Assembly: GCA_035389045.1 (NCBI GenBank)
Contig: DAOORA010000050.1
Span: forward strand, 1-34,714
DNA from: Bacteroidales bacterium
GTDB lineage: Bacteria; Bacteroidota; Bacteroidia; Bacteroidales; CAIWKO01
DNA: 34,714 nt
Direction of reading: 5' to 3'
In this document: positions 2,579 to 33,140 of the stretch, piece by piece
Layout of the letters: each line of letters starts with the position of its first letter
Position numbering within the stretch: the first letter of the stretch is position 1
Translations under genes and position numbers: made by a program
Notes under the pieces: model-generated
Database searches by the model: none
The model's input: only the letters and a program-made list of their open reading frames with translations
Told to the model about the DNA's origin: nothing

Positions 2579-3613
2579 TTAGTTTTTAACAAGTTTATAT
2601 GTGTAGTTTCTTTTATTCATTCTGATAGAACAAACAATTTGAATATAATATATTCCTTTTTCTAACCCATGTAAATGCTTTATACTGAAATGTTCGTCCT
2701 GTTTTTGAACATTCATCTTTCTGGTAAGCCGGCCATCGGCAGCAAAGAGATTTATTTCTTCAACAAAGGCTGAGCTTGAAATTTCTATTGTAATACCATC
2801 AATAAAAGGGTTGGGATATATACCAGCATTCATTACTTCAAAATCATTTCCGGACAATACCGTTACATGTAACATGACAGCATCGGACACTATGGATACA
2901 CAGGTATTGCTTAGCATGCATCTGAAAGAGGCTCCGTCTAATGCCAGGGAGGGTTGAAGCACATGAAGAGTATCCTCTTTGCCACCCTGAAATATTTGGT
3001 TGTCCTGGATGTTTCCCCATCCGCTTCCCTGATTGATCTGCCATTGAATGCTATCATAATCTGAAGCCCCGACAGAAAAAAAACCATTTTGGGTTGTATT
3101 TAAGGTTAGTGGCAGCGGCTGCATATTGATCACAGGGTTTTCCGGAACCGCCAGACTTCCATTGGAATAATTAATATTGATCGGGTCACCTGCCGAATCA
3201 GCGATTTCGCAATTGGTCATAAAGTTTACCGGAATATTTCCTCCTGAAATCACTCTAAAATTCAGTACAGCAAAAAGTCCTGCATTAAAATTTACTCCTT
3301 CTCCGGCATTATCAATCCATGAAATCCCGATTTTTCCTATCCGTGGGCCATTCACGGGCACACGGATATCGTTGTACATGGTGCCCGAAGCAAGCGGGTT
3401 GATATTGCTTAGAAAAACGGAATCAACCATGCTGGTGTCGTATCCGATAAATAATGTAATTGCACCTATATTGGGTATAGCCGACATATTTACAGGAATG
3501 TTAGCAATAGTACCGATGCACGATTGCACATGGCCAATCTGCATGGTTTGCGTATGCACCCGCCCGCACATCAATATCAGTAAACAAAAAGCGACAGCCT
3601 TACAGAGTTTCAT
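2579..3613 (-). CDS. Cohesin-like + Ig-like + T9SS type A sorting domain protein (344 aa); candidate anchor or adaptor
   Basis: Signal peptide ...GRVHT|Q. Cohesin-like IPVNMSAIPNIGAITLFIGYDTS...ISW...LFAVLNF...CEIADSAGDPININYSNGSL. Ig PVINMQP...IQWQ...FRC. CTD IYPNPF...LFAADGR...GLEKGIYYIQI...KLVKN. Confidence 0.85.
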   Translation of the reverse strand: MKLCKAVAFCLLILMCGRVHTQTMQIGHVQSCIGTIANIPVNMSAIPNIGAITLFIGYDTSMVDSVFLSNINPLASGTMYNDIRVPVNGPRIGKIGISWIDNAGEGVNFNAGLFAVLNFRVISGGNIPVNFMTNCEIADSAGDPININYSNGSLAVPENPVINMQPLPLTLNTTQNGFFSVGASDYDSIQWQINQGSGWGNIQDNQIFQGGKEDTLHVLQPSLALDGASFRCMLSNTCVSIVSDAVMLHVTVLSGNDFEVMNAGIYPNPFIDGITIEISSSAFVEEINLFAADGRLTRKMNVQKQDEHFSIKHLHGLEKGIYYIQIVCSIRMNKRNYTYKLVKN

Positions 3614-3622: not shown

Positions 3623-6600
3623 TTAATTACCGGGGAAAATGATCATGGAGCGTGTTGCATTGAAATTCCTGGTAACGCCTTCAACAGTGATTTTGTAATA
3701 ATAAGCCCCGCTTTTTAATCCCGAACCGTCGAAACGGATGGTGTATTTCCCTGCTTTTTGCACCGTGGATACCAGGGTGCCGACTTCCTGTCCCAGCACA
3801 TCGTAAGCTTTAAGCAATACATTGCCTTCTTCGGGCAATACATATCCGATTTCCGTTTCTCCGCGGAAAGGATTCGGATGATTCTGGCTCAGTTCAAAAT
3901 CCAAATCCGGAGTAATACGGATATCGGGATAACTCAAGCGGACGCCATGCATAATATCTGCTGTTTTATCGGCAAATTCACTTGCAGCATCGAGGCTGAG
4001 CGCGATATTGTCTTTTTCGGAGGCGTTTTCACTGACTTTCAGATGCAGGACACATAACACATCATTGCTGTTAAATACCGCAGGAGACAGGCTATCCCAG
4101 GCAATGACGACTTTTCCTTTCCTGGCGCTGTATAATAATCCTGGCAGGGAGGACGAAATACCCTCAACATCTGCGAACTTCTCAGGATAATCAATGATCA
4201 GAGTAACAGCAGCGGGTTGTATCATATTTTCACATAGTATCGGAAGATCAATGTTTTGATCCCTGTTTGTAAATATCTCTCCTTTTTCGAAAAGCTCAAT
4301 CCCCGAATTTTTAAGCATTACCGGAGTAAACGAACCGTTCACATCTCCGGCACACAATGTTTTTATGTCATGAGTAATATTGGTGTCAGCCAAAACAATA
4401 GTATCTTTCAGGAATACAATGTCTTTGATCTGGAAATTGTCGATCTGGCCGACAACGCGTCTTCTGATCAGCAAGGCATCGGTGCTTGAAATGGTATTTG
4501 AGTGATTAACATCAGCCGCCGTGTCCTGTAGCCTGTTCAATACGGACAATCCTATGCTGGCCCTGCGCACCAATAAGGCATCTGTTGAATTGACGCCTCC
4601 CCACGGAAAAACGGCGGACGCATCAATTAAATATGTTTTCTGTGGATTCAGTCCCAGGTCGTATGCTCCGTCCACGCCGGCGGTTACGGAATCTAAATTT
4701 ACCCCTTCGGTGTTTCTCAGGTATACGGTGGCATTGCTTATCGGAGTGCCAGCCAGATTCTGATAGGTGACAGACCCTGTTATTGACTTGGGATATCCCA
4801 GTATAACTTCCGCCTCAGGCGTATTTTTCATGGGTTCGGTATTACCGACATTGTCTTTGGCAATAGAGAAAAAACCATACTCCGAATTTTCTATCCCTGA
4901 AAGATGAGCAGTGTCCCCGAAGATATATTCTCCGAATAAATTATATGGCCCGGCATCCCTGGAATAATAGAGCATATATTTTTGTATTCCGCAGCCGCCC
5001 GGATCATCCTGTCCGCTGAATATGATATCAAGCGAACTCGGAGAGGTTTGTATAAGGGTATCTATCGAACTGGCCGGCGCCTTAGCATCTATTTTATTAA
5101 ACCATTCATTCGTATTAATAGATTCATTAATATCAAAAACAATTTTGGCCTGAGCCAGCACGGAATCGCCTGTGATATCAGATGATCTGGGTTTAATGGT
5201 AAAAGTGACAAATCCCTCGCCAACATGGGTGTTGGTATCGTTGACCGGCAGAAATCCGGTTTGCGGATCATTAGGAGGAAGGCCTGTTGCAGGGTCAATA
5301 GACCGGAATACCCAGAACGCTTCATGGTTGACCACGTCGAGTCCGGCGACAACATCAACATAAACATTTAACGAATCTCTGACATCGAGTCTTGTGGTAT
5401 AATGTGCGGTATTGGCCGGTACAGAGAAATTAAAATCGCCAAAACCAAAATTTCCGATTTGCAATGAATTCCAGTTGATCTTGCTGCTGAGCGGGACATT
5501 AATTTTCACTTCCTGTGCCGGAGCCGTAGCAAAAACAGGATCGTTTTCAAACCAAACGGTATAGGACAGCTGGTCATTGACGGATACCCACTGTGGTTCT
5601 GCATATCCCGCTGGTCCGGCAATAATATTCGGATCCTGAGGGCAATCGATCGGAATGAACAACACAAACACACACTTGCTGGCATTGCAGCCATTGGAGT
5701 CTGTCACCGAACAGCAATACAATCCTGATCCTGAAACGGTGAGTGTACCTCCCGGCCAGCTGTAAGTATAGGGAGGTGTTCCCCCGGAAGCTGTTGCGGA
5801 TAATGTCGTTGAGGTTGGGTCACCATTACAGTAACGGATAACGGTATTTCCTCCACTGACCGATACGGTTAATTTCGCGGGCTCTCCGATGGTGACGTTT
5901 GTTCTTCCGTGGCAGCCGTTTGCGTCTGTCGCAGTGACCGTATAGGTTCCGGCTGCCAAACCACTGGCTGTAGCGCCCCCGCTGCCATTCGACCATGTAT
6001 AGGTGTATGGCTCGTCACCGCCAGAGGCAGAAGCTGTCGCAGTGCCATCACTGCCTCCGTGACAGGAGGGATTTTTCGATGATGTTATAGTTACCGGGAA
6101 TGCATTATAGGACATTTCCACCTCCACGGAGCCGGTTCCTTTGCAACCGGCAGAATCAGTGACCGTAACACTGTAAGTTCCCTGGGACAAATCTGTAATG
6201 GTTGATGTCGTCCCGCCATTTGACCACTCATACGTATAGGGGGTGCTGCCTCCGCTGGCTGTCACCGTTGCGGTTCCATCCGCCGTATTATCACAGCTTT
6301 CGGGGGTGGATGCCATAGTAGTACCTAATGTGGACATGGAAAGCTCAATAGTAACCGTTTCCGTTCCCTGGCAACCGTTGGCGTCCACAACGGTAACCGT
6401 ATAATCTCCTTCGGCCAGATTGCTGATGCCCGGCGTGTTTTCGCCGGTCGACCACGTATACGTATAAGGAGGTGTCCCGTTGCTGACATTTGTTACCTGC
6501 GCCGTTCCATCCGAAGCCCCGGTACAGGTTACATCGGTATGGTCAACCTCGATCTGGCCAAACCCGTTAAAAAATAAAAACTGGAGTATGAATAATATTC

Positions 6601-6655
6601 CGGCAAACTTGATTTTTGCAGAATTACCCTGTTGAGAATTTAAATATCTTTTCAT
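3623..6655 (-). CDS. T9SS substrate (1010 aa): SprB-like repeats, 'DPN' (DUF7619-like) domain, Fn3-like, carboxypeptidase-regulatory-like, dockerin, cohesin-like, T9SS CTD
   Basis: Signal peptide ...NGFG|Q. Three to four C..DGTA..GGTPPYTY.WS..L..G.YTVTV.DANGC repeats. QDPNIIAGPAGY...YTVWFENDP..ATAPAQ...SIDPATGLPP.DP..GFLP.N...GEGFV...IVFDINESI. Dockerin GGVNSTDALLVRR / AADVNHSNTISSTDALLIRR. CTD LSQNHPNPF...YDVLGQEV...LKSGAYYY. Confidence 0.9.
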   Translation of the reverse strand: MKRYLNSQQGNSAKIKFAGILFILQFLFFNGFGQIEVDHTDVTCTGASDGTAQVTNVSNGTPPYTYTWSTGENTPGISNLAEGDYTVTVVDANGCQGTETVTIELSMSTLGTTMASTPESCDNTADGTATVTASGGSTPYTYEWSNGGTTSTITDLSQGTYSVTVTDSAGCKGTGSVEVEMSYNAFPVTITSSKNPSCHGGSDGTATASASGGDEPYTYTWSNGSGGATASGLAAGTYTVTATDANGCHGRTNVTIGEPAKLTVSVSGGNTVIRYCNGDPTSTTLSATASGGTPPYTYSWPGGTLTVSGSGLYCCSVTDSNGCNASKCVFVLFIPIDCPQDPNIIAGPAGYAEPQWVSVNDQLSYTVWFENDPVFATAPAQEVKINVPLSSKINWNSLQIGNFGFGDFNFSVPANTAHYTTRLDVRDSLNVYVDVVAGLDVVNHEAFWVFRSIDPATGLPPNDPQTGFLPVNDTNTHVGEGFVTFTIKPRSSDITGDSVLAQAKIVFDINESINTNEWFNKIDAKAPASSIDTLIQTSPSSLDIIFSGQDDPGGCGIQKYMLYYSRDAGPYNLFGEYIFGDTAHLSGIENSEYGFFSIAKDNVGNTEPMKNTPEAEVILGYPKSITGSVTYQNLAGTPISNATVYLRNTEGVNLDSVTAGVDGAYDLGLNPQKTYLIDASAVFPWGGVNSTDALLVRRASIGLSVLNRLQDTAADVNHSNTISSTDALLIRRRVVGQIDNFQIKDIVFLKDTIVLADTNITHDIKTLCAGDVNGSFTPVMLKNSGIELFEKGEIFTNRDQNIDLPILCENMIQPAAVTLIIDYPEKFADVEGISSSLPGLLYSARKGKVVIAWDSLSPAVFNSNDVLCVLHLKVSENASEKDNIALSLDAASEFADKTADIMHGVRLSYPDIRITPDLDFELSQNHPNPFRGETEIGYVLPEEGNVLLKAYDVLGQEVGTLVSTVQKAGKYTIRFDGSGLKSGAYYYKITVEGVTRNFNATRSMIIFPGN
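4448..4603 (-). other. Dockerin-like domain in the 1010-aa protein
   Basis: Duplicated helix motif (STDALLVRR / STDALLIRR). The second copy has a Ca-binding loop, DVNHSNTISSTD. Confidence 0.8.
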
Positions 6656-6712: not shown

Positions 6713-7420
6713 TTAGTTTTTTCTTAATTTTTTCAGTGCCGGTTTTACCATGCGTTTGAACAGTTTTGCCGACTCCTCTTTACTCATGCAGCTTCTGTCC
6801 GGAATGACCGGTTTGCGTTGTTCCGTCATTTTAGACAGGGTGAAGGCCAATATTTCCTTTTTTTGCATGTCCTGTGCACTTTTTGCTTTTTGGATTATCG
6901 TCTTGATTATTTCTTTATCCCGCATCAGGATCAGTGATTTCGCACAAAACTCAGCCACAGAGAGATTGTTGCTCTCTAAGCTGTCGAGTAACACAGGAAC
7001 GGACAGATGCCACAGCCGCTGTATTTGCCCGTTGGCTTCTTCGTAGGTATTAGGGTTTTTTATTCCCGACATATAGATGTAGCGGGTGACTTTTTCATCA
7101 ATGATCTTCTTATCTGCTGCCGTCAGCATTACCTCGCCTCTTAATTCCCGATCCCCTAATTCTTTGGCAAGCTTCTTCAGTTCATTTTTATTTCTTGACG
7201 AATCCAATATACTGATTATTTCGGACACGGTTTTTTCCGATAAATATTTTGCATCATCATAAATTCCGGAACTGTTTTCGCCAGGACGGGTGTTATGGTT
7301 TTGAGCCCCGGAAAGGGTATCTGATACGAGATTCTCATTTTTATTCTGCCCGTATAACCCGCTGCATAACAAAATAAAAACAATAAAAAACCCTTTTAAA
7401 ATGTAATTACTTTTTTTCAT
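6713..7420 (-). CDS. Exported hypothetical protein (235 aa), alpha-helical/HEAT-like; orphan immunity-like candidate
   Basis: Signal peptide MKKSNYILKGFFIVFILLCSGLYG|Q. HEAT-like segment SVPVLLDSLESNNLSVAEFCAKSLILMRDKEII. No recognisable family. Confidence 0.75.
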   Translation of the reverse strand: MKKSNYILKGFFIVFILLCSGLYGQNKNENLVSDTLSGAQNHNTRPGENSSGIYDDAKYLSEKTVSEIISILDSSRNKNELKKLAKELGDRELRGEVMLTAADKKIIDEKVTRYIYMSGIKNPNTYEEANGQIQRLWHLSVPVLLDSLESNNLSVAEFCAKSLILMRDKEIIKTIIQKAKSAQDMQKKEILAFTLSKMTEQRKPVIPDRSCMSKEESAKLFKRMVKPALKKLRKN

Positions 7421-7425
7421 TGTGA

Positions 7426-7432
7426 CACCTCC
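7426..7432 (-). promoter_or_regulatory. Shine-Dalgarno-like GGAGGTG before the 235-aa gene
   Basis: Minus strand reads GGAGGTG-TCACA-ATG, a 5-nt spacer. Confidence 0.5.
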
Positions 7433-7475
7433 AAATTATTAAACATAATACCATAAATAATAATATCTTTTTTTG

Positions 7476-8546
7476 TTATTTCTCCAAATGTTTTTTAGTG
7501 ACCATAAAAGTTTCATTTAAAAAATCAACGCCTTGCTGTTCCCTGATGGCCCCCGCCAACGCTTCATTTTCATATAAGTTTTGCACATCCCTGACCAGTC
7601 TGTCTGTGAGTGTTCTGTCCATAGCGGTTTCCGGCAGGGAAAGTTGCCCGTTCATAATATAACAGGCATTATAGAGGAAAAAATATTGTTTTGCCAACAC
7701 GGTTGTTTGTTCCGATAATCCCAGTAAAATTGGGATATCCAGGTCTCCGTAAATTTCTTTCATAAATGCAATATTCCTGTTGAATATTATCTGATTGCTT
7801 TTTATAATAATATCCTGTAAATCTTTTTGCACGATTTTTTCCCAAACGGTTTGCCAGGCATTCCTTTGATCATCCTCAACATAAATGTCATGTTTAAGAA
7901 TGGCATCAGCGATTATTTCCTGTTCATTTTTTGTCAGGATAATATTGGGCATGTTTCCGATTTGTTTCAGACAAACAATAATACTATCGCTTTTATACTT
8001 TTCTGATAATGAAACGCTTATCATTTCCCGGATTCGGATTAAATAGCTGTTGTTTTGCATGCTGAAAATGTTCCTGAATAAACTCCGCACCAATGTACAG
8101 GCCGCATTTTCGTCCAGCTGGATAACAGTCCAAACAGCCCGGTGTGGCATGAATAAGGGACTGTTAAGCGGGCGCCGGACCGACATGTCAATCGCAGAAA
8201 AATTCTTAATAAAACTTTTCTCTTCCAGCATGGTTTGTGCAAAATTTCCAAGATAAGTGATTACTTCAGTTTTGTAAGTGGAATCCCAGCTGATATAGGC
8301 CATACGGGTCAAAAGAAACCGTGCATCAGAGGGGTTCTCCATTTTACTGAAGGTGTCCGTGCTTTGCAGATTCAGGAAGTTATCAAGCCTGACTTTCATT
8401 TCTTTCCAGTTCTCTGAGGTCAGGTTATCATATTCTTTGGGATAATAGTTATATGGCCGTTCTTTCTGTCCGTAAATATCGGTCACAGGTGCAATAACAA
8501 ATAATGTAACAATGAAAAATAAAGCTTTATAGATTTTTGTTTTCAT
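7476..8546 (-). CDS. Exported hypothetical protein (356 aa), probably alpha-helical; candidate cognate partner/immunity protein of the upstream HExxH protein
   Basis: Signal peptide ...APVTDIYG|Q. Starts 12 nt after the stop of the 529-aa gene. No visible similarity to the 338-aa or 235-aa proteins. Confidence 0.8.
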   Translation of the reverse strand: MKTKIYKALFFIVTLFVIAPVTDIYGQKERPYNYYPKEYDNLTSENWKEMKVRLDNFLNLQSTDTFSKMENPSDARFLLTRMAYISWDSTYKTEVITYLGNFAQTMLEEKSFIKNFSAIDMSVRRPLNSPLFMPHRAVWTVIQLDENAACTLVRSLFRNIFSMQNNSYLIRIREMISVSLSEKYKSDSIIVCLKQIGNMPNIILTKNEQEIIADAILKHDIYVEDDQRNAWQTVWEKIVQKDLQDIIIKSNQIIFNRNIAFMKEIYGDLDIPILLGLSEQTTVLAKQYFFLYNACYIMNGQLSLPETAMDRTLTDRLVRDVQNLYENEALAGAIREQQGVDFLNETFMVTKKHLEK

Positions 8547-8558
8547 GATTTGTACTGT

Positions 8559-10148
8559 TTACCATTTGGGGTTTTCAGGATCCTTTGACCAATCTTTACT
8601 GGGAAAAGTTGCTTTTACTCCCGGGCTTATTTCTATTATTCTGCATCTGACTTCCTGGTCGGCATAACCGGTTCCGGCATAAAGCGCATAGTTAAAAGTA
8701 TTATGATTCGTAGAATCAGACACATGAAAATAGGTTCTTGACGGAGCTGCTTCTTCGCCGTTGGGCAAGCCATCGGTATCGTCGTGATTGGGCCCGATAG
8801 TACCAAAGTTTCCCCAGGCATTATAACAATCCCGGTGATGTAATTCGTGTGTCATCGATTCAGCAACGCACTTCAGGTGTTTTCCTGTTCCTGTCATGTT
8901 AAAAGCATTTCCCGACATATCATTGAGGGTTTCTGTAGGCCCGTTCACATCACAGGCCAGGGGGCCAAGTTGCAAACCATCGGTTGGCGACCAGGCTCCG
9001 TAATCCAGGGTCTGATCGTAAGTGCAAATATCCATATCCTCGACCACCTCGCCATCTTTCCAGAAAACAAACCAGCAGGGAGGGTTTGCGGTGGAGGGTG
9101 CACCTCCGTTCACGTTTAAATCCGGGTCGAAAAAGATTTTAACTTTATTGGCAGGGGTCATATCTGTTGATGAAAAGGTATGACTGTTCCCTTCTCCGTC
9201 CTGGCAGGAAACCCTTATCGTTCCATAAGCATCACCAAAATCACTGTTTGACGCAGAACTTAATTCGCTGTAAGGTATTCTCAAATCGGTGCCTGTTTTT
9301 GACGTACCTCCGGTAGTGCCCCAGTTATCCCAAATCCCATCCGGGGCTTCCCACTGCCAATCGGAGCAGTCGGAAGATGCTATGGCGCTGTACGAAATAA
9401 ACTCGCCCACCACCACTTTCCAGGCTTTTCCGGTTGTATTATCCTTCACATAATCAATCCATAATTCATATACATCTAAATTGATCGTTGGGGATGTAGC
9501 GCTGCAATCACCGTTTTCCGCCTCAACGTATATTGGTGTTGTGAATTTATGATCGGCATCACCATCAGGGACCTGATCGGCATCAGCCGTGTAATACTCA
9601 ATTCTGTCCCACGACCAGACTTCTTCATTCCATTCATTACCGGCTGCATCTTTGAAATAAAATGTAATGTTTATCGGGTCCGTCAGGCTGACAGGAAAAT
9701 CATCAGATACTTCTGCTGTAAAGGTAACAGAACGACCTTCCATGCACTGGGTGATATTATCTTCCACCGTCAATGTTACTGATGCATCAACCACCGTGAC
9801 GGTCACCTGGTCCTGATCCTTAAAACTGAAATCGGGGCCGACAACAGTAAGGGTATATGTGGTAGTCACTGCCGGTGTGGCCGTAGGATGTAAAATGTGA
9901 GGATCATTAAGCCCGGCCTGAGGACTCCAGGTATAACAATAATCCGGGTTTGCATCGCCCCCGCCGAGAATCACGCTTCCGGCGCCACAAATTGTCGAAT
10001 CCTGTCCGGCATCTGCATTTTGTGAAGACACTTCCGGAACAGAAAAAAGAACTACCAATGAAAGCAATAAAAAGTATTTTGATTTAACAAAGCTCATCTT
10101 TATAATAATTTTCAAAATTTCTTTACCGTTGTATTGACTTATTTCCAT
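8559..10148 (-). CDS. Exported PKD/Ig-like protein with a C-terminal HExxH zincin-like domain, paralog B (likely start at 10097, MSFVKSK...)
   Basis: Signal peptide ...PEVSS|Q. ADAGQDSTIC..WSP..GL.DP....P.A.P..TTTYTLTV (PKD-like). ESMT-HELHH at 8835-8849. DTDGLPNGEE acidic loop. Distal YADQE. Ends DWSKDPENPKW with no T9SS CTD. Confidence 0.85.
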   Translation of the reverse strand: MEISQYNGKEILKIIIKMSFVKSKYFLLLSLVVLFSVPEVSSQNADAGQDSTICGAGSVILGGGDANPDYCYTWSPQAGLNDPHILHPTATPAVTTTYTLTVVGPDFSFKDQDQVTVTVVDASVTLTVEDNITQCMEGRSVTFTAEVSDDFPVSLTDPINITFYFKDAAGNEWNEEVWSWDRIEYYTADADQVPDGDADHKFTTPIYVEAENGDCSATSPTINLDVYELWIDYVKDNTTGKAWKVVVGEFISYSAIASSDCSDWQWEAPDGIWDNWGTTGGTSKTGTDLRIPYSELSSASNSDFGDAYGTIRVSCQDGEGNSHTFSSTDMTPANKVKIFFDPDLNVNGGAPSTANPPCWFVFWKDGEVVEDMDICTYDQTLDYGAWSPTDGLQLGPLACDVNGPTETLNDMSGNAFNMTGTGKHLKCVAESMTHELHHRDCYNAWGNFGTIGPNHDDTDGLPNGEEAAPSRTYFHVSDSTNHNTFNYALYAGTGYADQEVRCRIIEISPGVKATFPSKDWSKDPENPKW

Positions 10149-10196
10149 TATCCTATTTTTTCAAGTACATAGTTTTTTTAATTTCATTTTATATTT

Positions 10197-11213
10197 TTAC
10201 CCGGGGGCGCTCCTGTTTTTACAACTTGAAATAATTTTTACCAGGTTTTTAAGCATATATTTTTTTATTTCTTCTAACCCCTGATTTTTAATTTGTTCCC
10301 AGTCATCGCCACAAACGTACGCGAGCAATTGTTTCAGGTCATCTTCTTTTTTAAATGTATTATTGAAAAGGATGTTAATATTCAAAGACCTGAGGCTGCT
10401 GCCAAGACTTATCCCCGTTTTTTCTGAAGGGCGGACCAGATATTCTTTCAACAACAGGTCAAATGCATTGGGCGTTCCGGCTTCTCCGAGAATACCAATT
10501 ACAGGCGCTGGTATCACAAGAGAGTCCTTAGCGCTTTTTGATAATGAGTCTACAATATATTCAGCTATTGCATATTCGTCTTTAACAATAGCGGCTCTGT
10601 ATGGATTGTCTTTTCCGAAAGAATTGTTGTGTGCCCCATGTTTTATATAACTGCTTATCAGGTCGTTGTAGTAAAAGAAACGTTTTTTGCGTATGATGTC
10701 CGACCGGTAATAGATCATACGGATCATCGAATCAATTTCGGGGTATGATTTACTTGTCAGATAGTTATTAAATTCAGGAATGTTGAATTTTTCAAGGTAG
10801 GTGAGGGAACCGACCAGTTCCGGTTTGTTTTCACTCTGACTCCGAACCGAACTGACTGAAAATTTTGTTATTTCTTTGTCCTCCGGGAATCCTGCCAGAA
10901 AATGTACAGCCCTGTACACATAATCTGCTGCATCAATTTTAATAATGTTCTGGAATACCTGGTATTTGTTTTTCAGATCGAAGGCCGGGGGGAGATTTCC
11001 TTTGAGCAGCATTAATTCCCATAAGGTGTTTTCCCTGATAACCCTGTCATTACTATAAAGATTCGGGATTTTCTCATTAAACTGAGCAACAGAGTCCTGT
11101 TTTTGCCATTGGCAAAACACCTGTGTTGACAGCATGGTCAGAACAAGAAAAACAATAAAATTTTTCATGAAATAAAATGCAGTAAAATTACTATTCAGAA
11201 AATGCTTTACCAT
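10197..11213 (-). CDS. Exported hypothetical protein, helical/HEAT-like (likely start at 11168, MKNFIVF...); candidate cognate partner/immunity protein
   Basis: Signal peptide MKNFIVFLVLTMLSTQVFC|Q. HEAT-like VIGILGEAGTPNAFDLLLKEY and LYSNDRVIRENTLWEL. Directly follows the 513-aa HExxH gene. Confidence 0.8.
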   Translation of the reverse strand: MVKHFLNSNFTAFYFMKNFIVFLVLTMLSTQVFCQWQKQDSVAQFNEKIPNLYSNDRVIRENTLWELMLLKGNLPPAFDLKNKYQVFQNIIKIDAADYVYRAVHFLAGFPEDKEITKFSVSSVRSQSENKPELVGSLTYLEKFNIPEFNNYLTSKSYPEIDSMIRMIYYRSDIIRKKRFFYYNDLISSYIKHGAHNNSFGKDNPYRAAIVKDEYAIAEYIVDSLSKSAKDSLVIPAPVIGILGEAGTPNAFDLLLKEYLVRPSEKTGISLGSSLRSLNINILFNNTFKKEDDLKQLLAYVCGDDWEQIKNQGLEEIKKYMLKNLVKIISSCKNRSAPG

Positions 11214-12748
11214 TGTTTTCCTCCTTTACTCCAGTCTGATGCAGGAACACCCAAGGCCCCGCGTGCAAAAGTCATCACACCGTATTCGTTGTCGCCGTAT
11301 TCAGCATAGGTAGGATGCTTTATCACGCGCAGGTTATAAGTGTCTTTATTTCCTATGGTGCAACCTAATCCGGCCTCAAGAGGGTCGGGGAGGCCATCAC
11401 CGATAAATACGGTTCCCGCAGGATTTCCCGCTGTGTCCGTATCAGCTGTTCCGCCAATTATTTGTAGTGCGTACACATTATGCTGCATCTCATGCCTGAC
11501 CACTTCTGTACAACAATCAATGCCCTGTGCGCCTCCGAATTCAATTCCGTTAATCATCAGTCCGCCGGGGTAATGTGTGCCGCCGGCAAGCCGGCATACG
11601 GCCAGATTCTGAACATTCCACCACAAAAATGTCCCTATAGAAGACCACCCGTAGGAATTGTCGTTATCGTACTGAAACAAATTCAGATTGGGAACAGCCC
11701 CCTCTTTCCAGAATAAATACCAGCATGGCGGATCATCATTGGCTGTTGCTCCTCCGCTTCTGCTCAATTCAGGTGTAAAAAAGACCGATGCTTTTTGCGG
11801 AGGATTCAGATCTGTTGATGAACAGGTGCAATTATTGCCATCTCCGTCAATACAGGTAACGGTTACAGTTCCGTAATTCATTCCGAAATAGCTGTTGTTG
11901 GCGGAGCTTAAATCAGAATAAGGGATTACCATGCCGTTGCCATTTTTTGCATTCCCTCCGGCCGGGTTCCATGTGTCGGGAAAGCCGTCGGGCATATCCC
12001 ATTCCCAGTCATGGCAATCAGAAGAAGCTATCGCACTGTATTCAATGGCGTCGCCCACAACAACTTTCCAGTCTTTTTTGGTGGCATTATCCCGAACATA
12101 TTCTATCCATAACTCATATACATCAATATTAAGAGTTTCAGAGGTGGCGCTGCAATTATCGTTTTCCGCATCAACAAATATTGGTGTTGTAAATTTATGA
12201 TCGGCATCGCCGTCGGGCACCTGCGCGGCAACCACCGTGCTGTATTCGGTTCTGTCCCACGACCAGTCCTCCTCCGTCCAGTCGGTACCATTGGCGTCCT
12301 TGTAATGGAATGTGAATAATAATTGATTGAAAAGGCCTGCAGGGAAGGCGTCTGAAGCTTCTGCCGTAAAGGTTACTGAGCGCCCCTCCATGCACTCGGT
12401 GATATTGTTTTCTACGGTTAATGTTACTTCGGCTTCCTCAACAGTAACCGTCACCTGATCCTCATCCCTGAAACTGAAATCCGGGCCAACCACTGTAAGG
12501 ACATAAGTAGTAGTTACTGTCGGGCTTGCCACAGGATGTAATATATGAGGATCACTAAGTCCGGTCTGCGGACTCCAGCTATAGCAATAATCCGGGTCTT
12601 CATCACCACCGCCGATAACAACACTGCCTTCACCACAGATGGTCGTATCAGGCCCTGCATCAGCCTGAGAAAACGCCTTCGGCATAAATAACATGCACGC
12701 TAACGTCAGCAGTAAGATGATTTTGATTTTATTATACTTGATTTTCAT
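11207..12748 (-). CDS. Exported PKD/Ig-like protein with a C-terminal HExxH zincin-like domain, paralog A (513 aa)
   Basis: Signal peptide ...PKAFS|Q. N-terminal ~320 aa are colinear with the 529-aa protein. GIDCCTEVVR-HEMQH at 11480-11494. GDGLPDPLE loop. Distal YGDNE. Ends DWSKGGKQW with no T9SS CTD. Confidence 0.85.
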   Translation of the reverse strand: MKIKYNKIKIILLLTLACMLFMPKAFSQADAGPDTTICGEGSVVIGGGDEDPDYCYSWSPQTGLSDPHILHPVASPTVTTTYVLTVVGPDFSFRDEDQVTVTVEEAEVTLTVENNITECMEGRSVTFTAEASDAFPAGLFNQLLFTFHYKDANGTDWTEEDWSWDRTEYSTVVAAQVPDGDADHKFTTPIFVDAENDNCSATSETLNIDVYELWIEYVRDNATKKDWKVVVGDAIEYSAIASSDCHDWEWDMPDGFPDTWNPAGGNAKNGNGMVIPYSDLSSANNSYFGMNYGTVTVTCIDGDGNNCTCSSTDLNPPQKASVFFTPELSRSGGATANDDPPCWYLFWKEGAVPNLNLFQYDNDNSYGWSSIGTFLWWNVQNLAVCRLAGGTHYPGGLMINGIEFGGAQGIDCCTEVVRHEMQHNVYALQIIGGTADTDTAGNPAGTVFIGDGLPDPLEAGLGCTIGNKDTYNLRVIKHPTYAEYGDNEYGVMTFARGALGVPASDWSKGGKQW

Positions 12749-12785: not shown

Positions 12786-15700
12786 TTAATATTCGATAAT
12801 ATATCCAAGTCCGGCAATGGTTTTTGTGTAAATAGTTATTGTTCCTGAAACGCCCGGCCTCAGAATTCCAGAAGGCCCGTTTTCCTCTTCGAGCGGCACA
12901 ACCAGTTCATGGTACATGTTGGTCAGCTGGTCAACGCTCAATGCTATGGGAGATATAGAAAGACTTTTCACTTTCACTTCAGGATTGATAATGTTGGTAT
13001 TGCCAAGATTAGCATACTCAATGGTAAAGCTGGTAATCCTGTTCGATCTTGCCGAGGGCGGGGAAATGATATATACTCCAAGATTGGGCGCCGCTCCTGA
13101 AACAACTTCAAATCCCTCCTGGAGCGAAACAGTATCTCCGTTGAGTTTTTCCAAAACAAGGTCAAAAACACCTGGTTGTATGCCTGTCAGATCAAATGTT
13201 GCATATATTCTTGAATAGTCTACATATATAATATCCTCTGCTGTGATGGTGATTGTTCCGTTTTCAAGACGCGCATCCAGGTATGGGTCAAATTTTGATC
13301 CGATAATCTCCAGGGTGACCTGTCCGGTATTCCCTCCGGTAGCAGGGTTCGAGGACAGTATCTGGAAGGTGAGAATATCAGCTCTGACGTCAACGAGCTG
13401 GCTGTTTCCTGCCAGGGTGTTTCCATACAGCAACATATAGTAACTGCCATCCATCACCGAGGGCACAATAATCTTCTGATTCCCCTGATAGGGATTATCG
13501 CTTGAATAATCATATATGATCCGGGTAGGCATATCATCATATTTGAGGTACATTTCGTTGGACCCGCTGACCGAGTCGGCTTTAAGGGTTGTGAGCATGG
13601 TCTCGTCATTCTGCGAATACGCTATCGGGATGCGGAAATACAGGTTCTCAAAGTCATTCAGCGTATCGCCGAGCGTAACGCCAATGGGTAATTCACGCAC
13701 GTTGGCAAACACCGGTTCATTAGTTTCGGAAATATTATTAACTTCATTATTTTCATATATTCCGTTTAGCACATCCGTTCTGATGATCACGTAATAATAA
13801 CCCAGGTGAAGCCCGTTTGCTCTGGCTGTAAGGCTTCGGGGAACTTCTGCACCCGCCCCGAGATTTATGCCTGACTGATACGATCCGAATAATTCATCAT
13901 CTATATCCCAGAAAGGATCTTCAGAAAAATAAACCATATCTTTTACGGTTCCAATGGCAGGATTCTGACCGATATTTTTCAGCGTCCATTGTATGGTTGT
14001 CGTTTTTCCGACGGTCACCGAATCCGGTGGAACGATCTCGACAACGAAAAGGTCAGCAGGAGGCGGCTGAGAAATCACTGTAAATGCATATTTTGTGTTG
14101 TTGTTTTCGTCTGATTCAAATATTCCATTGCCACCGTCGGTCATAATAATAATGATGAAGTTCCCTGTTACATTGTTGGGCAAAGTAACCGGCAGCGTAT
14201 CCGAATATGTTTCGTTAATGCCGATAATCCCTGTTCTGGTTTTTGACCCGATCATTACGTCGCCTGTATTAATTACAAAATCCGACGATAAATATATTTT
14301 ATCTGTCCAGGTACTTCCCGAAATACTGCCCACGCCCTGATTTTTGACAGTCCAGATAGCATTGAACGACACGCCGGTAACGGCCTGTGTCGGCACGGAA
14401 AATGATGTCACCACGAGGTCGGGGGGCGGGGTAAGGGTAATATGAGTGGTTAGCATGGACGGTCCGTTCTTTTTCCTTGCCCCGCTGTTGTTTAATAAAT
14501 TGCCATCATTATTATCCTGTTCATAATCGGCTACCACCAGCAGGTAATAATTCCCGCTTATGCCGTTGGGTATATTGAATGACTGGCTGCAGCTGTAACT
14601 TTCATCAAAGTCCAGTATTCCGTGGTGATTTCGTTTTCCGAGGTACAGGTCTGTATTTTGGTTCCATATGCTGTCGGTGGATAAATAAACGGCATCATAC
14701 CAGGTGATCACGGAGCCGGTAACCGACAGATTTTTTACTGTCCATTGCACCGTTACAGCTTGTCCGGAATTCACGGTATCGGGGTTTACAATATCCAGCG
14801 CCACAAGATCAACAGGTGGAAGCGGCTGGATATACAACGCATTGCTTCTTAAAACATTATTATACTCTGCTGTGTATTCAAAAATGGAATCTTCTGCATC
14901 TGCAAAAACATAAATATAGTGATTTCCTCCAGCAAGACCAGCCGGAAGGTTAATATCTGATACAATGGAATACGTTGAATCTGCAGCCACGGAAAACGAT
15001 GCCGCTAATGAACGCAGATGACTAGACGAACCGGGATCCCAGATAGGAATTGACGAAATAAATACCTTGTCGATCCACGTTTTGCCCGTGATATTTTTTG
15101 CACCTGCATTTTTCACAATAAAATTCAGCGGGATATTGTTTCCTGCCTCTGCAGAATCAGGTATCTGGATATTCATAACCTGCAAATCGGCCCATGTTCC
15201 TATATTCAGATGTATCATAAAATCGGCAATATTATTATTTTCATTAATGGCTTCATCAATGCCGTCACCGTAGTCGGTGTAAACATGGACATAATAATTT
15301 CCCTGAAGGCCTTCAGGAATTTCAACGGACAATTGATTGGGCATGGTATCACCCGGATGCAGTGTGCCGTTGCATACTTTTTCGCCCAGAAACACATTTC
15401 CTCCCTGGTAATACGATGGAAAATGTGACAGATAAATTCGGTCTTTCCATGTTTTGTTCCACATGGTCAGTGTTCCGGTATTTTCTGTTACCCATTGAAC
15501 GTTGATGGTTTCCCCTGAATTTGCGGAAGAAGGAACGACCAGGCTGCTGACAATAAGATCCGGCCTTTTAATCTGGATGGTTGATGCGCTGTGTTCCAGA
15601 TTATTTGCTTCAGAATAGTTTTCGAATATCTGGTCCAGATAATCGGCATGAATAAAAATATAATATGTTCCGGGAACCGCAGAGTCGGGCAAAGTGACAA

Positions 15701-18635
15701 ACACTTGTTTGATGATACTGTCTCCCGGATCAATGTATGCGTCATAGTTCAGTGAGGCGATCTGAAAAACAGAATCGGGATCATAAACCGGGCTATGGGT
15801 CATCAAGATACGGTCTGTCCAGTTACGGTTATAAACGATGCCTGTCCCCACATTTTTAATGGACCATTTGATATCAATGGCCTGAGTGCCGCTGTCCGCA
15901 GGGGGAATTAAAATAGTACTTACGGCCAGGTCGGGTTTGGCAAGCCAGATACTATCCGTACTTCGTAAAAGATTATTGTTTTCGTTGCCATTTTCATATA
16001 TATTATTGTTCCAATCCGAATAAATGTACAAGTAATAGGCGCCCGATAAATTGTCCGGCAGAGATATTGATTTGGTGCGGTTCAGGCTTTCACCGGGCAG
16101 TAAAGAAGTTGAGGTATAACTCTGTTCAGTTACCAGGATCATAGAATCAGGGTGATAAACCGGAGATTTTGATATCATGATCCGGTCTTTCCAGGTTTTA
16201 TTCAATATTTTTCCATGTCCGTTGTTCAATACCGACCACTGGAGGTTGAACGGCAGGCTGGTATTATTTACCAGGGGGCAGACCATATTGGAAATGATAA
16301 GGTCTGGATTTACAATCATTACCGGGTTGTCTGTTCTGAGCACGTTATTATTTTCATACTCAAACTCAAAAACATTGTTGTTCAAATCTGTCTTAACATA
16401 TACATAATAAGGCCCTGTCAGGTTTTGGGAAAAATTGATCTGTTTAGTGGCAGAATAGGTGCTGTCGGGAGGCAGGCTGCTGACACTTATTGATTTAGGT
16501 CCCAGATTTAAAGCCTGGCCGATGTCGAAATAAGGGAGGTCAGATAAATAAACGCCATCGGTCCAGTTGAACACCGTGGGCGGTGTAGCTCCCTGATTCT
16601 GCACAGTCCAGCCGACCATAAAAACATCCTGGTTGCTTATGGTGTCCGGCATATTGATATGAGTAACTACAAGATCTGCGGGCGGTGTGAGGTACACAAT
16701 TACGGAATCGCTTCTTGTGGTATTATTGTTTTCATATACATATTCGAATACATTATTGGCAACGTCGGTTATCACGTAAAAATAATAGGTGCCGTAAATA
16801 TTGGACGGGATGGTCACCGCATGGGTAGTGGTATACGAACTGTCCGGGTTCAGAAGCCCGGTATGAGTGAATGTTCCAAGGTTCACGGCAGTATTGATGT
16901 TCAGCGCCGTATCTGATGAAATGTAAACCCTGTCGCTCCAGTTGCTGGTATTGGTGTTTCCATCTCCATAGTTCTTTACCGTCCAGGAAATAGTAACCGT
17001 CTGTCCGGAAAACATATCGGCAGGCGTAATGATAGAGGTGACTTTCAGATCGGGTTCCGGTGGTATGGGGAAAATGACTTCTTTATAGAAAAAATTATCA
17101 TGATATGGCGGCTGGTCGGAGATTTCTTTAACCACATTGACATAACTTCCGCCATGGGTATATGCCCGGTAATAGGGTGGAGGATTGTAAGGCAGGGGAG
17201 GACCTGTCTGTGGCCAGTTCATAAAAAGAGCATCCATTGCATCGGTTATTACGAAAAGGTAATAAGAACCGATCAGATTTGCAGGTATTTGTATCTGTTG
17301 GGTCTGAACATAGTTTTCGCCGGGATCGAGGTAGCTGACATTAGGATATTGTCCGAGCAGAATATCTTCCGCTTCACCAATCCGGACTTCAATATCAGGC
17401 GAAAGCCACACACGGTCCATCCATATATTTCCTGAGGGCGTAGGCCAGTTACCATCATTCTGTACGGTCCAGCTTATCGTCATCGGCTGGCCTGCAATGG
17501 GTTGCGAATTTGTTATTCCTGTAACATGGAGTTCGGGAAGCCCGGTGATAGAGAATACCTGAATTGGTCCCGGTGTCTGGGCACAGGGATTCTTTGCAAC
17601 GATCCTCCATTTGCAGGTATCTCCGTATGTAAACAAACTGCTTCCTGTTAACTGATAATTGATCTGTGTGATATTCGAAACAGTTGGTGTTGTGGGCTGT
17701 GACACGTTATATTTCCAGATATACAGGTCGTATAACGAGGCATTAGCCGACGGACTCCATGAAAACAGTATCGGGTATGAAATATCAAAAGAACTGTCCG
17801 CCGGCAGCATGCTGGTGACAGCCGAAGGGGGTGTGTTTGAATATACGGTAATGGCCTTAGAGGCAAACGCAGAATCGATGCCGTCGCTCACTTTAACCGA
17901 ATATACAGTGTTTACAGTAGGTTTAACCCATACTGCTGACAGGGTAGCAGAAAAACCAACAGGGTCGGACGACCAGTTAAACGTATAACCTCCCTGTCCA
18001 CCCGATGCCTGTGCTGTCAACAGAACAGAATCACCCATGCAGATACCATCCTTGTTTGAAGTGATGTTAACCGATACGGACGGCGATACCAGCCCGCCGC
18101 GGTATACCACGCCTGGTGACAATATATTGCCGGCAGTGTCTGTGATTTCGCAGCTGGTCAGGAACGTTACCGGGCTGGCTCCGCTGTTGTATTTAAACCT
18201 GAGATCCAGTATCTTGCCGGTCCCGATGGTCACCCCGTCGATATCAAACCATGAAACAGCAATGGTGTTGCTGTTTAGTTTATTGATCAACGGGTATCCG
18301 GGTATCAGCAAAGAATGGATATTTAATGCCCTTCCATAAGACAGCGTTGTACTGTTAAACTGAATATATAATGTTATGGATCCGATCTTGGGGAGATCAT
18401 GGGCTCTGACAGCTATGTCAATACTGTCACCCTGATGGGCTATCACGGTGTCTGCTGTCAGCATGGGGGTCTGGGCAAACACAGGTTTCATCAGGACAAG
18501 GATAAAAACAACCAGGGAAACACTCAGATTCATAATGGTCTTATGAAATATTCTGCTGCCTGTTGTGATAGCGGGCTTATCGGTTCTTATTATTTTCATG
18601 ATTTTTTTATTTTTAAAATCAACATTAATTTTCAT
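12786..18635 (-). CDS. Cohesin + 10x CARDB scaffold-like protein (up to 1949 aa) with PPC-like and IPT/TIG-like domains and no T9SS CTD
   Basis: Signal peptide ...MKPVFA|Q. The ATG at 18635 overlaps the upstream TAA (TAATG); alternative starts at 18599 and 18533. Cohesin-like domain ~18088-18470. Ten (P/A)DL.V....P...W.VKN.G....W.D.VYLS...G.YY..V..D..N...E....NN units. Ends ...GILRPGVSGTITIYTKTIAGLGYIIEY*. Confidence 0.9.
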   Translation of the reverse strand: MKINVDFKNKKIMKIIRTDKPAITTGSRIFHKTIMNLSVSLVVFILVLMKPVFAQTPMLTADTVIAHQGDSIDIAVRAHDLPKIGSITLYIQFNSTTLSYGRALNIHSLLIPGYPLINKLNSNTIAVSWFDIDGVTIGTGKILDLRFKYNSGASPVTFLTSCEITDTAGNILSPGVVYRGGLVSPSVSVNITSNKDGICMGDSVLLTAQASGGQGGYTFNWSSDPVGFSATLSAVWVKPTVNTVYSVKVSDGIDSAFASKAITVYSNTPPSAVTSMLPADSSFDISYPILFSWSPSANASLYDLYIWKYNVSQPTTPTVSNITQINYQLTGSSLFTYGDTCKWRIVAKNPCAQTPGPIQVFSITGLPELHVTGITNSQPIAGQPMTISWTVQNDGNWPTPSGNIWMDRVWLSPDIEVRIGEAEDILLGQYPNVSYLDPGENYVQTQQIQIPANLIGSYYLFVITDAMDALFMNWPQTGPPLPYNPPPYYRAYTHGGSYVNVVKEISDQPPYHDNFFYKEVIFPIPPEPDLKVTSIITPADMFSGQTVTISWTVKNYGDGNTNTSNWSDRVYISSDTALNINTAVNLGTFTHTGLLNPDSSYTTTHAVTIPSNIYGTYYFYVITDVANNVFEYVYENNNTTRSDSVIVYLTPPADLVVTHINMPDTISNQDVFMVGWTVQNQGATPPTVFNWTDGVYLSDLPYFDIGQALNLGPKSISVSSLPPDSTYSATKQINFSQNLTGPYYVYVKTDLNNNVFEFEYENNNVLRTDNPVMIVNPDLIISNMVCPLVNNTSLPFNLQWSVLNNGHGKILNKTWKDRIMISKSPVYHPDSMILVTEQSYTSTSLLPGESLNRTKSISLPDNLSGAYYLYIYSDWNNNIYENGNENNNLLRSTDSIWLAKPDLAVSTILIPPADSGTQAIDIKWSIKNVGTGIVYNRNWTDRILMTHSPVYDPDSVFQIASLNYDAYIDPGDSIIKQVFVTLPDSAVPGTYYIFIHADYLDQIFENYSEANNLEHSASTIQIKRPDLIVSSLVVPSSANSGETINVQWVTENTGTLTMWNKTWKDRIYLSHFPSYYQGGNVFLGEKVCNGTLHPGDTMPNQLSVEIPEGLQGNYYVHVYTDYGDGIDEAINENNNIADFMIHLNIGTWADLQVMNIQIPDSAEAGNNIPLNFIVKNAGAKNITGKTWIDKVFISSIPIWDPGSSSHLRSLAASFSVAADSTYSIVSDINLPAGLAGGNHYIYVFADAEDSIFEYTAEYNNVLRSNALYIQPLPPVDLVALDIVNPDTVNSGQAVTVQWTVKNLSVTGSVITWYDAVYLSTDSIWNQNTDLYLGKRNHHGILDFDESYSCSQSFNIPNGISGNYYLLVVADYEQDNNDGNLLNNSGARKKNGPSMLTTHITLTPPPDLVVTSFSVPTQAVTGVSFNAIWTVKNQGVGSISGSTWTDKIYLSSDFVINTGDVMIGSKTRTGIIGINETYSDTLPVTLPNNVTGNFIIIIMTDGGNGIFESDENNNTKYAFTVISQPPPADLFVVEIVPPDSVTVGKTTTIQWTLKNIGQNPAIGTVKDMVYFSEDPFWDIDDELFGSYQSGINLGAGAEVPRSLTARANGLHLGYYYVIIRTDVLNGIYENNEVNNISETNEPVFANVRELPIGVTLGDTLNDFENLYFRIPIAYSQNDETMLTTLKADSVSGSNEMYLKYDDMPTRIIYDYSSDNPYQGNQKIIVPSVMDGSYYMLLYGNTLAGNSQLVDVRADILTFQILSSNPATGGNTGQVTLEIIGSKFDPYLDARLENGTITITAEDIIYVDYSRIYATFDLTGIQPGVFDLVLEKLNGDTVSLQEGFEVVSGAAPNLGVYIISPPSARSNRITSFTIEYANLGNTNIINPEVKVKSLSISPIALSVDQLTNMYHELVVPLEEENGPSGILRPGVSGTITIYTKTIAGLGYIIEY
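13720..17540 (-). repeat. Ten diverged CARDB-type domain repeats (~125 aa each)
   Basis: Unit starts: LPELHV, EPDLKV, PADLVV, NPDLII, KPDLAV, RPDLIV, WADLQV, PVDLVA, PPDLVV, PADLFV. Confidence 0.85.
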
Positions 18636-32617: not shown

Positions 32618-32703
32618 ATTTGAAAATATAATGTTAATAACAATATTTCAGATAAATGATATAAACTTTTATAATAAATGTTAATTATAGTTAAAACAAC
32701 TTA

Positions 32704-32734
32704 CGAAGTTAACAATTTTGTTTTGAATAGTCAA
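32704..32734 (-). promoter_or_regulatory. Candidate Bacteroidota housekeeping promoter for the large operon
   Basis: Minus strand TTG-N20-TAACTTCG, one mismatch to the -7 consensus TAnnTTTG with correct spacing, about 87 nt upstream of the ATG at 32617. Confidence 0.55.
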
Positions 32735-32786
32735 TAATTTAACGATATTTAACAGGGTTAACACAATATTAACAAGAAATATTAAC
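32709..32786. repeat. Six TTAAC direct repeats, roughly helically phased
   Basis: TTAAC at 32709, 32739, 32749, 32758, 32769 and 32782. Confidence 0.6.
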
Positions 32787-33084: not shown

Positions 33085-33092
33085 TATTTTTG
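33085..33092 (+). promoter_or_regulatory. Candidate -7 element (TATTTTTG) for the FISUMP gene
   Basis: Exact TAnnTTTG match 48 nt upstream of the ATG at 33141. No clear -33 element. Confidence 0.35.
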
Positions 33093-33140
33093 TTTTCACA
33101 AAGCAAATAATCGTAATGTTTAACATTTAATTTATTATTT

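Follow-up and report, generated by a model that had tools for sequence, protein, structure and literature searches.

The Locus and Its Five Central Genes

The window considered here is the whole of contig DAOORA010000050.1 (34,714 nucleotides, nt) of a Bacteroidales bacterium (assembly GCA_035389045.1), and its subject is a set of five adjacent genes for two related proteins with an HExxH motif near the C-terminus, a partner protein behind each, and a protein of 235 amino acids (aa), p235. Coordinates refer to the whole window, gene limits are those of translated open reading frames (ORFs), and genes lie on the minus strand unless stated otherwise. HExxH protein 1 (513 aa; 11207-12748) consists of a signal peptide, an immunoglobulin (Ig)-like leader (residues 28-104), a two-sandwich core (residues 105-335), and a zincin-like C-terminal domain of type A, which family alignments place at residues ~315/336-513 (nt 11210-11743) and which contains the motif HEMQH (11480-11494). 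Partner A (338 aa; 10197-11213), an exported alpha-solenoid, begins with an ATG within the final codons of HExxH protein 1. HExxH protein 2 (529 aa; 8559-10148) has the same leader and core, followed by a type-B C-terminal domain (residues 352-529, nt 8562-9095, from the ORF and BLASTP) with the motif HELHH (8835-8849). Partner B (356 aa; 7476-8546), which is exported and unrelated to partner A, starts 12 nt past the stop of HExxH protein 2. The last gene, for p235 (6713-7420), encodes a HEAT-repeat protein, assigned through its BLASTP and hidden Markov model (HMM) family, with an N-terminal hydrophobic anchor or signal; this single copy is common to both peptidase-partner pairs. The gaps between the five genes are -7, 48, 12, and 55 nt.

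An earlier note on this DNA had described two gene pairs, of 513 and 338 aa and of 529 and 356 aa; these ORFs, all on the minus strand, are as it stated, and translation locates HEMQH and HELHH where it put them. Its picture of two pairs was incomplete: the fifth ORF in the same range, 6713-7420, is a conserved third component. The partner genes are richer in AT than their neighbors, as the note had suspected, with a GC content of 0.382 each; the peptidase genes have 0.477 and 0.457, and the window as a whole has 0.440. None of the five central proteins has a match in Pfam or NCBIfam (E up to 0.1 or 1), in PADLOC, or among Protein Data Bank (PDB) sequences.

The two HExxH proteins are 51% identical overall (BLASTP, E 3e-150). 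Residues 29-350 of the 513-aa protein align with the 529-aa protein without a gap, at 66.5% amino acid and 70.6% nucleotide identity, in keeping with the roughly 60% that had been estimated by eye. Identity falls along the protein, from 78% in the leader (28-104) through 64% in the core (105-335) to 31% in the C-terminus (336-513), and sharp divergence begins at a PPCW junction. The C-terminus of the 513-aa protein, which is 31% identical to that of its 529-aa neighbor, is 56-61% identical to those of proteins from the Planctomycetota-Verrucomicrobia-Chlamydiae (PVC) group. For the window paralogues, recent gene conversion is ruled out: they share no identical nucleotide stretch longer than 17, a sign that their similarity is old, and in codons for identical residues 54% of third positions agree.

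The HExxH Domain Family

The two C-termini of the window are homologous variants of one domain family, as the earlier note had argued, and the motifs it named (DGLP..E, Y.D.E, and DWSK...W) are conserved columns across the whole family. A word-index search with the 513-aa protein returns 135 relatives, under the source names Phycisphaerae, Planctomycetaceae, Sumerlaeota, and one Rhodocyclaceae-labelled metagenome-assembled genome (MAG); among the best 44, five are truncated or partial sequences and the remaining 39 have HExxH close to the C-terminus. Scans of genomes and metagenomes find 13 and 19 loci, respectively, in Planctomycetota, Lentisphaerota, one Verrucomicrobia-labelled MAG, and one Chitinophaga-labelled MAG. 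When a profile of core plus C-terminus (alignment A3) is run against 1.84 billion cluster representatives, it matches 1196 proteins at E ≤ 1e-3, 538 at 1e-10, and 106 at 1e-30. Many of these matches cover just the last ~190 profile positions, a domain that closes long proteins otherwise composed of PKD, TSP3, beta-helix/NosD, RCC1, LTD, PPC, and P-domain modules.

The HExxH motif is retained in all 106 representatives with a complete domain, and in 104 of these the domain lies at most 32 aa from the protein end. An alignment of 108 sequences has conserved columns at P341, W343, W347, G367, A388, H419, E420, H423, D438, D451, E458, D486, E488, D505, and W506 (numbering of the 513-aa protein); W343, H419, E420, H423, and W506 are kept in 100% of the sequences, and D438 and D505 in 99%. 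When 24 diverse domains are aligned by themselves, W343, W347, HExxH, E488, and D505-W506 are invariant. A loop of the form D.D.DG.PD..E, resembling thrombospondin type 3 (TSP3) repeats, is conserved after the active-site helix, and 7 of 31 domain-only relatives give a weak Pfam match to TSP3_bac at this D.D.DG.PD loop.

The same 31 relatives match no Pfam peptidase family at E up to 1, and no Pfam match to Tox-MPTase is found in the window proteins or the relatives scanned. A protein atlas search with the domain gives no usable match, and nothing significant appears in PDB sequence or profile searches. Four weak PDB profile matches are seen; those to astacin (3vtg_A, E 0.11) and adamalysin (1wni_A, E 1.0) are in register at HExxH, and the other two are RlmN chains, in which the motif aligns with a histidine run at the chain end. 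A conserved third histidine after HExxH is absent from the 108- and 24-sequence alignments and from the PDB profile alignment, so the family is not a metzincin one. The ~190-aa HExxH domain defines a large unnamed family, absent from Pfam and NCBIfam; a full-text literature search finds no description of it, which is not proof that none exists. The family is rare: of 401 genomes sampled in the window's phylum, 2 have it, the window genome being one of them, and of 401 in the phylum of genome G401, 8 do. The window genome, which is 96.3% complete, has only these two full peptidase copies.

A Three-Gene Module

ORFs called and compared across loci have a recurrent order: the HExxH protein, a middle gene on the same strand, and a homologue of p235. 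In a hand tally of non-redundant modules, the middle gene is present in 27 of 28, the remaining peptidase gene (L017) running directly into p235, and p235 is found by BLASTP and HMM in 22 of the 26 modules with enough downstream DNA. The arrangement is present in Planctomycetota, Lentisphaerota, Verrucomicrobia-labelled, and Bacteroidota MAGs, and it is a conserved, exported, old, and widespread three-gene module, not a local polymorphism.

The middle proteins form eight phmmer clusters (A to H), and among these hhalign finds a sole link, between B and G (probability 88.9). Partners A and B, which the earlier note had called unrelated, are indeed so (best BLASTP E 0.11; hhalign probability 0.2). 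There are, on this evidence, at least seven unlinked sequence families, each apparently tied to one HExxH-domain subtype. Homologues of partner A stand directly behind type-A peptidases in seven modules (the window, L011, L012, L013, L025, L026, and L030), and homologues of partner B behind type-B peptidases in another seven (the window, L014, L037, L018, L019, L020, and L021). Downstream genes are conserved only within a type; conserved, interchangeable downstream genes, the outcome that the earlier note had set against its own proposal, are not what the loci have.

Among members of one type, the catalytic domains share 31-69% identity and the partners 18-36%, and the partner proteins evolve very fast; a word-index search of 5.8 billion proteins adds a single further relative of partner A and none of partner B. 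Identity correlations of the mirror-tree kind are dominated by one close pair per type. HEAT_2 is weakly matched by two of seven members of the partner A family, and a type-C partner passes the Pfam threshold for HEAT_2 (36.4 bits; cut-off 27.7). In 11 of 22 modules, including the 513-aa/338-aa pair, the ATG of the middle gene lies within the terminal Q/R-W-stop codons of the peptidase gene; this 7-nt overlap of peptidase end and partner start points to translational coupling. The DNA for the conserved peptidase end Q/K/R-W-stop (11207-11215 in the window) includes ATGGT, and in 11 of 22 modules the partner starts at this ATG, with Met-Val, so that one set of bases serves both the tail of the peptidase and the coupling signal.

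The family of p235 is recognizable as HEAT-repeat protein in most of its members: 11 of 16 match HEAT_2, with a best E of 6.9e-8. The window p235 has no HEAT_2 match of its own at E up to 1; it is placed by its match to the family HMM (E 6.8e-83) and by a HEAT lead from the protein atlas. An N-terminal hydrophobic segment is present in 23 of 24 middle proteins, partners A and B included, and an N-terminal hydrophobic anchor in all 13 stand-alone p235 proteins; with the signal peptide of the peptidase, these features agree with the earlier note's view of exported gene products, extended to every module component. Middle protein and p235 form one polypeptide in six modules (L018, L019, L020, L021, L034, and L066), and the L018 fusion has a C-terminal hydrophobic stretch followed by basic residues. 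From the hydrophobic features of p235 and the L018 fusion we infer that their domains lie in the periplasm. A different fusion, P0140 (551 aa), lacks an HExxH domain and has a p235 domain (hhalign E 6.7e-37) directly behind leader and core. Through these two kinds of fusion, p235 is linked both to the partner and to the core. A relation of p235 to the middle clusters was considered and rejected: hhalign finds none, and an apparent match to cluster B is due to fusion rows that reach into p235.

Several smaller observations concern p235 and its surroundings. The genome of the window has a single p235 copy. Genome G207 (a Bacteroidota sample, near-complete, in three contigs) has three shorter relatives at L065 and L066; two of them, which lack p235, stand in tandem, each paired with a small exported partner (278 aa in one case, 187 aa in the other), and the third has a 528-aa partner-p235 fusion behind it and an extra p235-like ORF ahead. 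At L025, a gene for a helix-turn-helix protein with an S24 peptidase domain (9293-10270 of that locus; LexA or phage-repressor type) lies ~0.7 kb past the p235 gene and could hint at a mobile context. Further genes matching HEAT_2 occur near modules (L012 2398-5181, L022 2535-3560, and L029 6934-8244), among them three paralogous genes of ~430-460 aa upstream of the Phycisphaerae locus, and TPR proteins are encoded upstream in L026 and L029.

Exchange of Cassettes Between Conserved Cores

The two halves of the peptidase have different phylogenies. In a maximum-likelihood tree of the C-terminal domain, all seven rows with an A-type partner fall into one clade (support 87/83), together with the long-branch L016, and all six rows with a B-type partner fall into another (93/97), in which HExxH protein 2 groups with L014 and L037. 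In the tree of the Ig-like core, the 513-aa (A) and 529-aa (B) proteins of the window are sisters (95/97), and further pairs join across types: L013 (A) with L033 (G), L016 (C) with L037 (B), L012 (A) with L034 (H), and L028 (E) with L029 (F). Approximately unbiased (AU) tests were run on groups defined by partner type or position, without knowledge of the tested tree. They reject monophyly of the A rows on core data (delta lnL 112, p 7.5e-66) and, on C-terminal data, a grouping of the two window proteins as a clade (delta lnL 143, p 7e-7).

The incongruence of the two trees, together with the tracking of the C-terminal tree by partner type, means that HExxH domains have been swapped on a conserved core, each taking its partner gene along, so that the two form one cassette. 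The invariant motif PPCW...FW marks the junction of this cassette. In the window, a type-A and a type-B cassette stand behind near-sister cores, and tandem modules with related cores and different cassettes occur also in L037 and G207. The polymorphic layout that had been recognized from the two window proteins therefore holds in an evolutionary sense, by the trees and AU tests, and the gene adjacent to each is type-specific, since partner family follows the C-terminal clades. What is exchanged are variant heads of a single family, not heads of unrelated fold.

Exchange may be traceable among close relatives. In DNA run X2, from a digester, a single contig of low depth (2.4) leaves the window sequence after the Trp codon of PPCW (11719) and rejoins it at 10174, which is 23 nt past the partner A stop; with a depth below the joint threshold, it is a lead only. 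Loose contig ends in the same run fall at 11702, 10198, and 7476 (the partner B stop), alongside collinear contigs. If these breaks are real, the same cassette boundary varies among close strains and the swap is ongoing in natural populations.

Structure Models

The AlphaFold2 model of residues 105-513 of the 513-aa protein has a mean confidence (pLDDT) of 89.6 and a pTM of 0.81; its numbering puts HExxH at model residues 315-319 and protein E488 at model residue 384. Model residues 1-219 form two beta-sandwiches that resemble Ig-like, PKD, FN3, and macroglobulin (MG) domains at Z ~10 by Foldseek and VIA-align (for example 4xed_A, Z 10.0, root-mean-square deviation 2.3 Å over 89 residues). The C-terminal part begins with short strands (255-300), followed by a 23-residue helix (305-327) that bears HExxH, a loop of lower confidence with the TSP3-like acidic motif, and several helices, the last of which (381-391) bears the invariant Glu ~65 residues past HExxH.

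Zincins of the gluzincin type, such as thermolysin and the M1 families, combine HExxH with a downstream Glu on a helix. The modeled domain has the order of elements of this type, with HExxH on a long helix after a beta-sheet and the invariant Glu on another helix, and is probably a zinc metallopeptidase of the gluzincin type. It would differ from known gluzincins in having no significant sequence match to solved or Pfam peptidases, in the TSP3-like calcium loop after the active-site helix, and in its invariant DW...W tail.

The alternative that the HExxH domain is not a peptidase at all, and is some other metal-dependent hydrolase or a non-catalytic binder with a structural role in the envelope, would suit a domain with no significant sequence or fold match to solved peptidases and no entry in Pfam or NCBIfam, yet we regard it as the least probable of the explanations considered, given that HExxH and the downstream Glu are kept in every complete member, on helices that the model arranges as in zincins, and that two of the four weak PDB profile matches are metallopeptidases in register at HExxH.

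The AlphaFold2 model of partner A is all-helical, with 18 helices (pLDDT 85.7). Its best matches are HEAT/ARM proteins (Foldseek E 0.034, VIA Z 8.8), levels that common helical arrangements reach as well.

Possible Function of the Module

The explanation we favor, at about an even chance of being right, is that the module produces an exported zincin, a cognate and co-translated solenoid of the inhibitor or immunity type, and a membrane HEAT protein that serves as anchor. The window would then hold two tandem copies of the variable part of a three-component module exported by the Sec system. The first component would be the protease, built of a signal peptide, the Ig-like leader, the two-sandwich core, and a zincin-like domain of ~190 aa that ends in an invariant DW...W tail; the second an exported alpha-solenoid of ~300-500 aa, encoded directly downstream and often translationally coupled; and the third the conserved, membrane-anchored, periplasmic HEAT-repeat protein. 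Each solenoid would bind and mask its own catalytic domain, as an inhibitor, immunity protein, or latency factor, and the HEAT protein would bind the constant part, keeping the assembled proteins at the inner membrane pending release or activation of the protease. Such a protease might serve to attack other cells, or it might be a secreted or processing enzyme under the cell's own control; the turnover of cassettes inclines us slightly toward a system of the antagonism type.

Several known systems provide parallels. Metalloproteases of the serralysin type are secreted enzymes with a periplasmic inhibitor encoded in the same operon (AprA/AprI, Inh, SmaPI); the inhibitors are small beta-barrels, and the proteases are metzincins (HExxHxxGxxH) secreted by a type I system. 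These pairs may serve as a working model, in which an exported binder encoded beside the protease gene would protect the periplasm of the producer. Unlike them, the module described here has a large alpha-solenoid as partner, lacks the third histidine of the metzincins, and exchanges the pair as a cassette.

Another parallel is with polymorphic toxin systems, which, in the portion of the survey considered here, include HEAT-repeat immunity proteins (Imm-HEAT) and the zincin toxin domains Tox-MPTase1-5 (Zhang et al., 2012; PMC3482391). Measured against that portion, the module would share a conserved N-terminus with a C-terminal enzymatic domain that recombines together with a directly downstream, type-specific gene, and also HEAT-type partners, immunity proteins of this kind being described there. 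It would differ from the systems in the same portion in that all complete heads belong to one unnamed HExxH family with no Pfam match to Tox-MPTase; in that only a Sec-type signal and Ig-like domains are present, with no Rhs or other trafficking module; and in its exported partners of 300-500 aa, its third HEAT gene, and the lack of orphan cassettes in the window genome. The earlier note had read the pairs as variant secreted proteases with cognate periplasmic inhibitors in a polymorphic toxin layout. That layout stands and cognate pairing is likely; the trafficking module, unrelated toxin folds, and orphan cassettes expected of such toxins are not found, and a third component exists.

A number of observations weigh against the favored explanation. 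No toxin-trafficking or delivery domain (Rhs, PAAR, LXG, or haemagglutinin repeats) is matched by Pfam in the window proteins or 61 relatives; the window peptidase and partner proteins have no sorting tail for type IX secretion (T9SS) by Pfam; and profile searches find no orphan copies of the peptidase, p235, partner A, or partner B elsewhere in the window genome. The partners, at 300-500 aa, are far above the typical size of immunity proteins. The three-gene order has gaps, with p235 absent from L014, L063, and both G207 pairs in L065, and the middle gene from L017; matches to p235, A, and B are absent at four loci with the C-terminal domain only, although at the high-GC Planctomycetota loci of this kind ORF noise obscures partner calls. 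In the C-terminal tree, L016 and L017 are on long branches. Only one core-bearing protein has a different C-terminus, all complete-domain C-termini being of one family: P0049 (681 aa, Sumerlaeota-labelled, marked partial), in which the core is followed by 348 residues with neither HExxH nor a Pfam family. As to the peptidase assignment, whole-model searches with Foldseek and VIA-align list solely Ig-like, PKD, and MG matches to model residues 1-219 and none for 220-409, and the astacin and adamalysin profile matches are not significant.

A bolder form of the proposal would make the module a new class of Sec-exported effector-immunity system of PVC bacteria and Bacteroidota, in which the core docks on the membrane HEAT protein and matched cassettes serve antagonism or kin discrimination between strains; we consider this rather unlikely as a whole.

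Less probable than that, but ahead of the other competing views, is regulated proteolysis of the LapG/LapD kind, with a periplasmic calcium- and zinc-dependent protease that trims or releases the giant proteins encoded next to it and is sequestered by the solenoid and the membrane HEAT protein until a signal arrives; variability of head and partner would then mirror different substrates and not conflict. LapG is a cysteine protease and LapD a receptor for cyclic di-GMP (c-di-GMP). By analogy, a periplasmic, calcium-dependent protease near giant adhesin genes could be sequestered by a membrane protein here as well. The genomic context at both Bacteroidota-type loci speaks for this view: the module stands, on the same strand and with short gaps, between the gene for a giant CARDB protein and that for an SprB/DUF7619 protein with a T9SS tail. 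In the window these are a CARDB-repeat protein of 1949 aa (12786-18635; 37 nt ahead of HExxH protein 1) and, downstream of p235, a SprB/DUF7619/dockerin protein of 1010 aa with a T9SS sorting tail (3623-6655), both assigned by Pfam. At L014, in the Chitinophaga-labelled MAG, the upstream CARDB giant is 33% identical over ~1160 aa, and the downstream protein (L014_8585), with DUF7619, SprB, and Por_Secre_tail, is 44% identical to the 1010-aa protein. At PVC loci the peptidase itself often has a long adhesin-like N-terminus (805-1674 aa), and export of all parts, the membrane anchor of p235, and the conserved TSP3-like calcium loop would all suit a switch. Outside the two Bacteroidota loci, however, the flanking giants are missing and the neighbors are not conserved (TPR, PA14, PBP-like, MotA/ExbB, and others). 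No signalling domain, those for c-di-GMP included, is found in p235 or the partners; nothing similar to a LapG-like cysteine protease or a LapD-like receptor is seen, the protease being of another class; and cassette exchange with very fast partner divergence is unexpected of a housekeeping switch.

We give marginally less credence to the possibility that the middle protein and p235 are not inhibitors and are instead factors for assembly, export, or substrate presentation, in effect an ARM/HEAT lid acting in trans. In M1 aminopeptidases a C-terminal ARM domain acts as a lid in cis. Alpha-solenoids are generic binding scaffolds; the weak matches of the partner A model include aminopeptidase N (5dll), and one p235 member has weak matches to ERAP1_C and DUF3458_C. 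Translational coupling suggests a stoichiometric complex, and the partner-p235 and core-p235 fusions suggest one assembly. A lid or chaperone should nevertheless be conserved along with its catalytic domain, and the partners are unalignable between types; the structural matches are weak, with Z values (≤ 8.8) that common helical arrangements also attain.

A classical polymorphic toxin, delivered by a dedicated machine (type VI secretion, T9SS, or a contact-dependent system) and countered by the solenoid as immunity protein, is doubtful. It would account for layout and cassette behavior just as the favored explanation does, and tandem arrays of different types in one genome (the window, L037, and G207) and the sporadic distribution over the sampled genomes (2 of 401 and 8 of 401, as above) fit it. 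Against it, no Rhs, PAAR, LXG, or haemagglutinin-repeat domain and no T9SS tail is matched in the module's window proteins or the 61 relatives scanned; Tox-MPTase matches by Pfam and orphan cassettes in the window genome are lacking too, and the third conserved gene has no counterpart among the systems described in the portion of PMC3482391 considered here.

Because the HExxH family is constantly paired with a hypervariable solenoid and a conserved HEAT protein, it makes a testable case of protease and binder co-evolution in the envelope of little-studied phyla. Should the partners prove to be specific inhibitors, the family would be a natural library of matched protease and inhibitor specificities, and the logic of polymorphic toxins would extend to a system with no known delivery module. 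If the module is instead a regulatory switch for giant adhesins, it is a new analogue of the LapG/LapD principle.

Neighboring Genes and Expression

The five central genes lie within a row of nine closely spaced genes on the minus strand, from a gene for a 4660-aa protein to one for a cohesin protein. The 4660-aa multidomain surface protein (18635-32617), assigned by Pfam, has Laminin_G_3, DUF1573, HYDIN-like Ig, GEVED, and reelin subrepeat domains, among others, and the end of its gene overlaps the start of the CARDB gene by 1 nt; the 1949-aa CARDB protein has no T9SS tail by Pfam. At the other end of the row, the cohesin protein with a T9SS sorting tail (2579-3613; Pfam) adjoins the gene at 3623-6655. 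The T9SS proteins at 3623-6655 and 18635-32617 each have a type I dockerin, and these proteins could form a cohesin-dockerin assembly at the cell surface of a Bacteroidota-like genome. Membership in Bacteroidota is suggested by the T9SS tails and SprB repeats of this row.

In a promoter and terminator scan, sites are no more numerous than in shuffled sequence, and the sigma-70 model used may not suit the host. Metagenome runs that contain window DNA carry the labels activated-sludge and anaerobic-digester. In three metatranscriptome libraries from three studies, the peptidase, partner, p235, and CARDB genes are matched at 99% identity or more by contigs with a depth of 2-6, one of which bridges the gap between the CARDB gene and the 513-aa gene; carry-over of DNA is possible throughout, and such contigs are no evidence of transcription, strand, or operon structure. 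Beyond an AT-rich gap (GC 0.32-0.37; 32501-33500), the plus strand encodes a 325-aa protein with a Fibrobacter succinogenes major domain (33141-34118).

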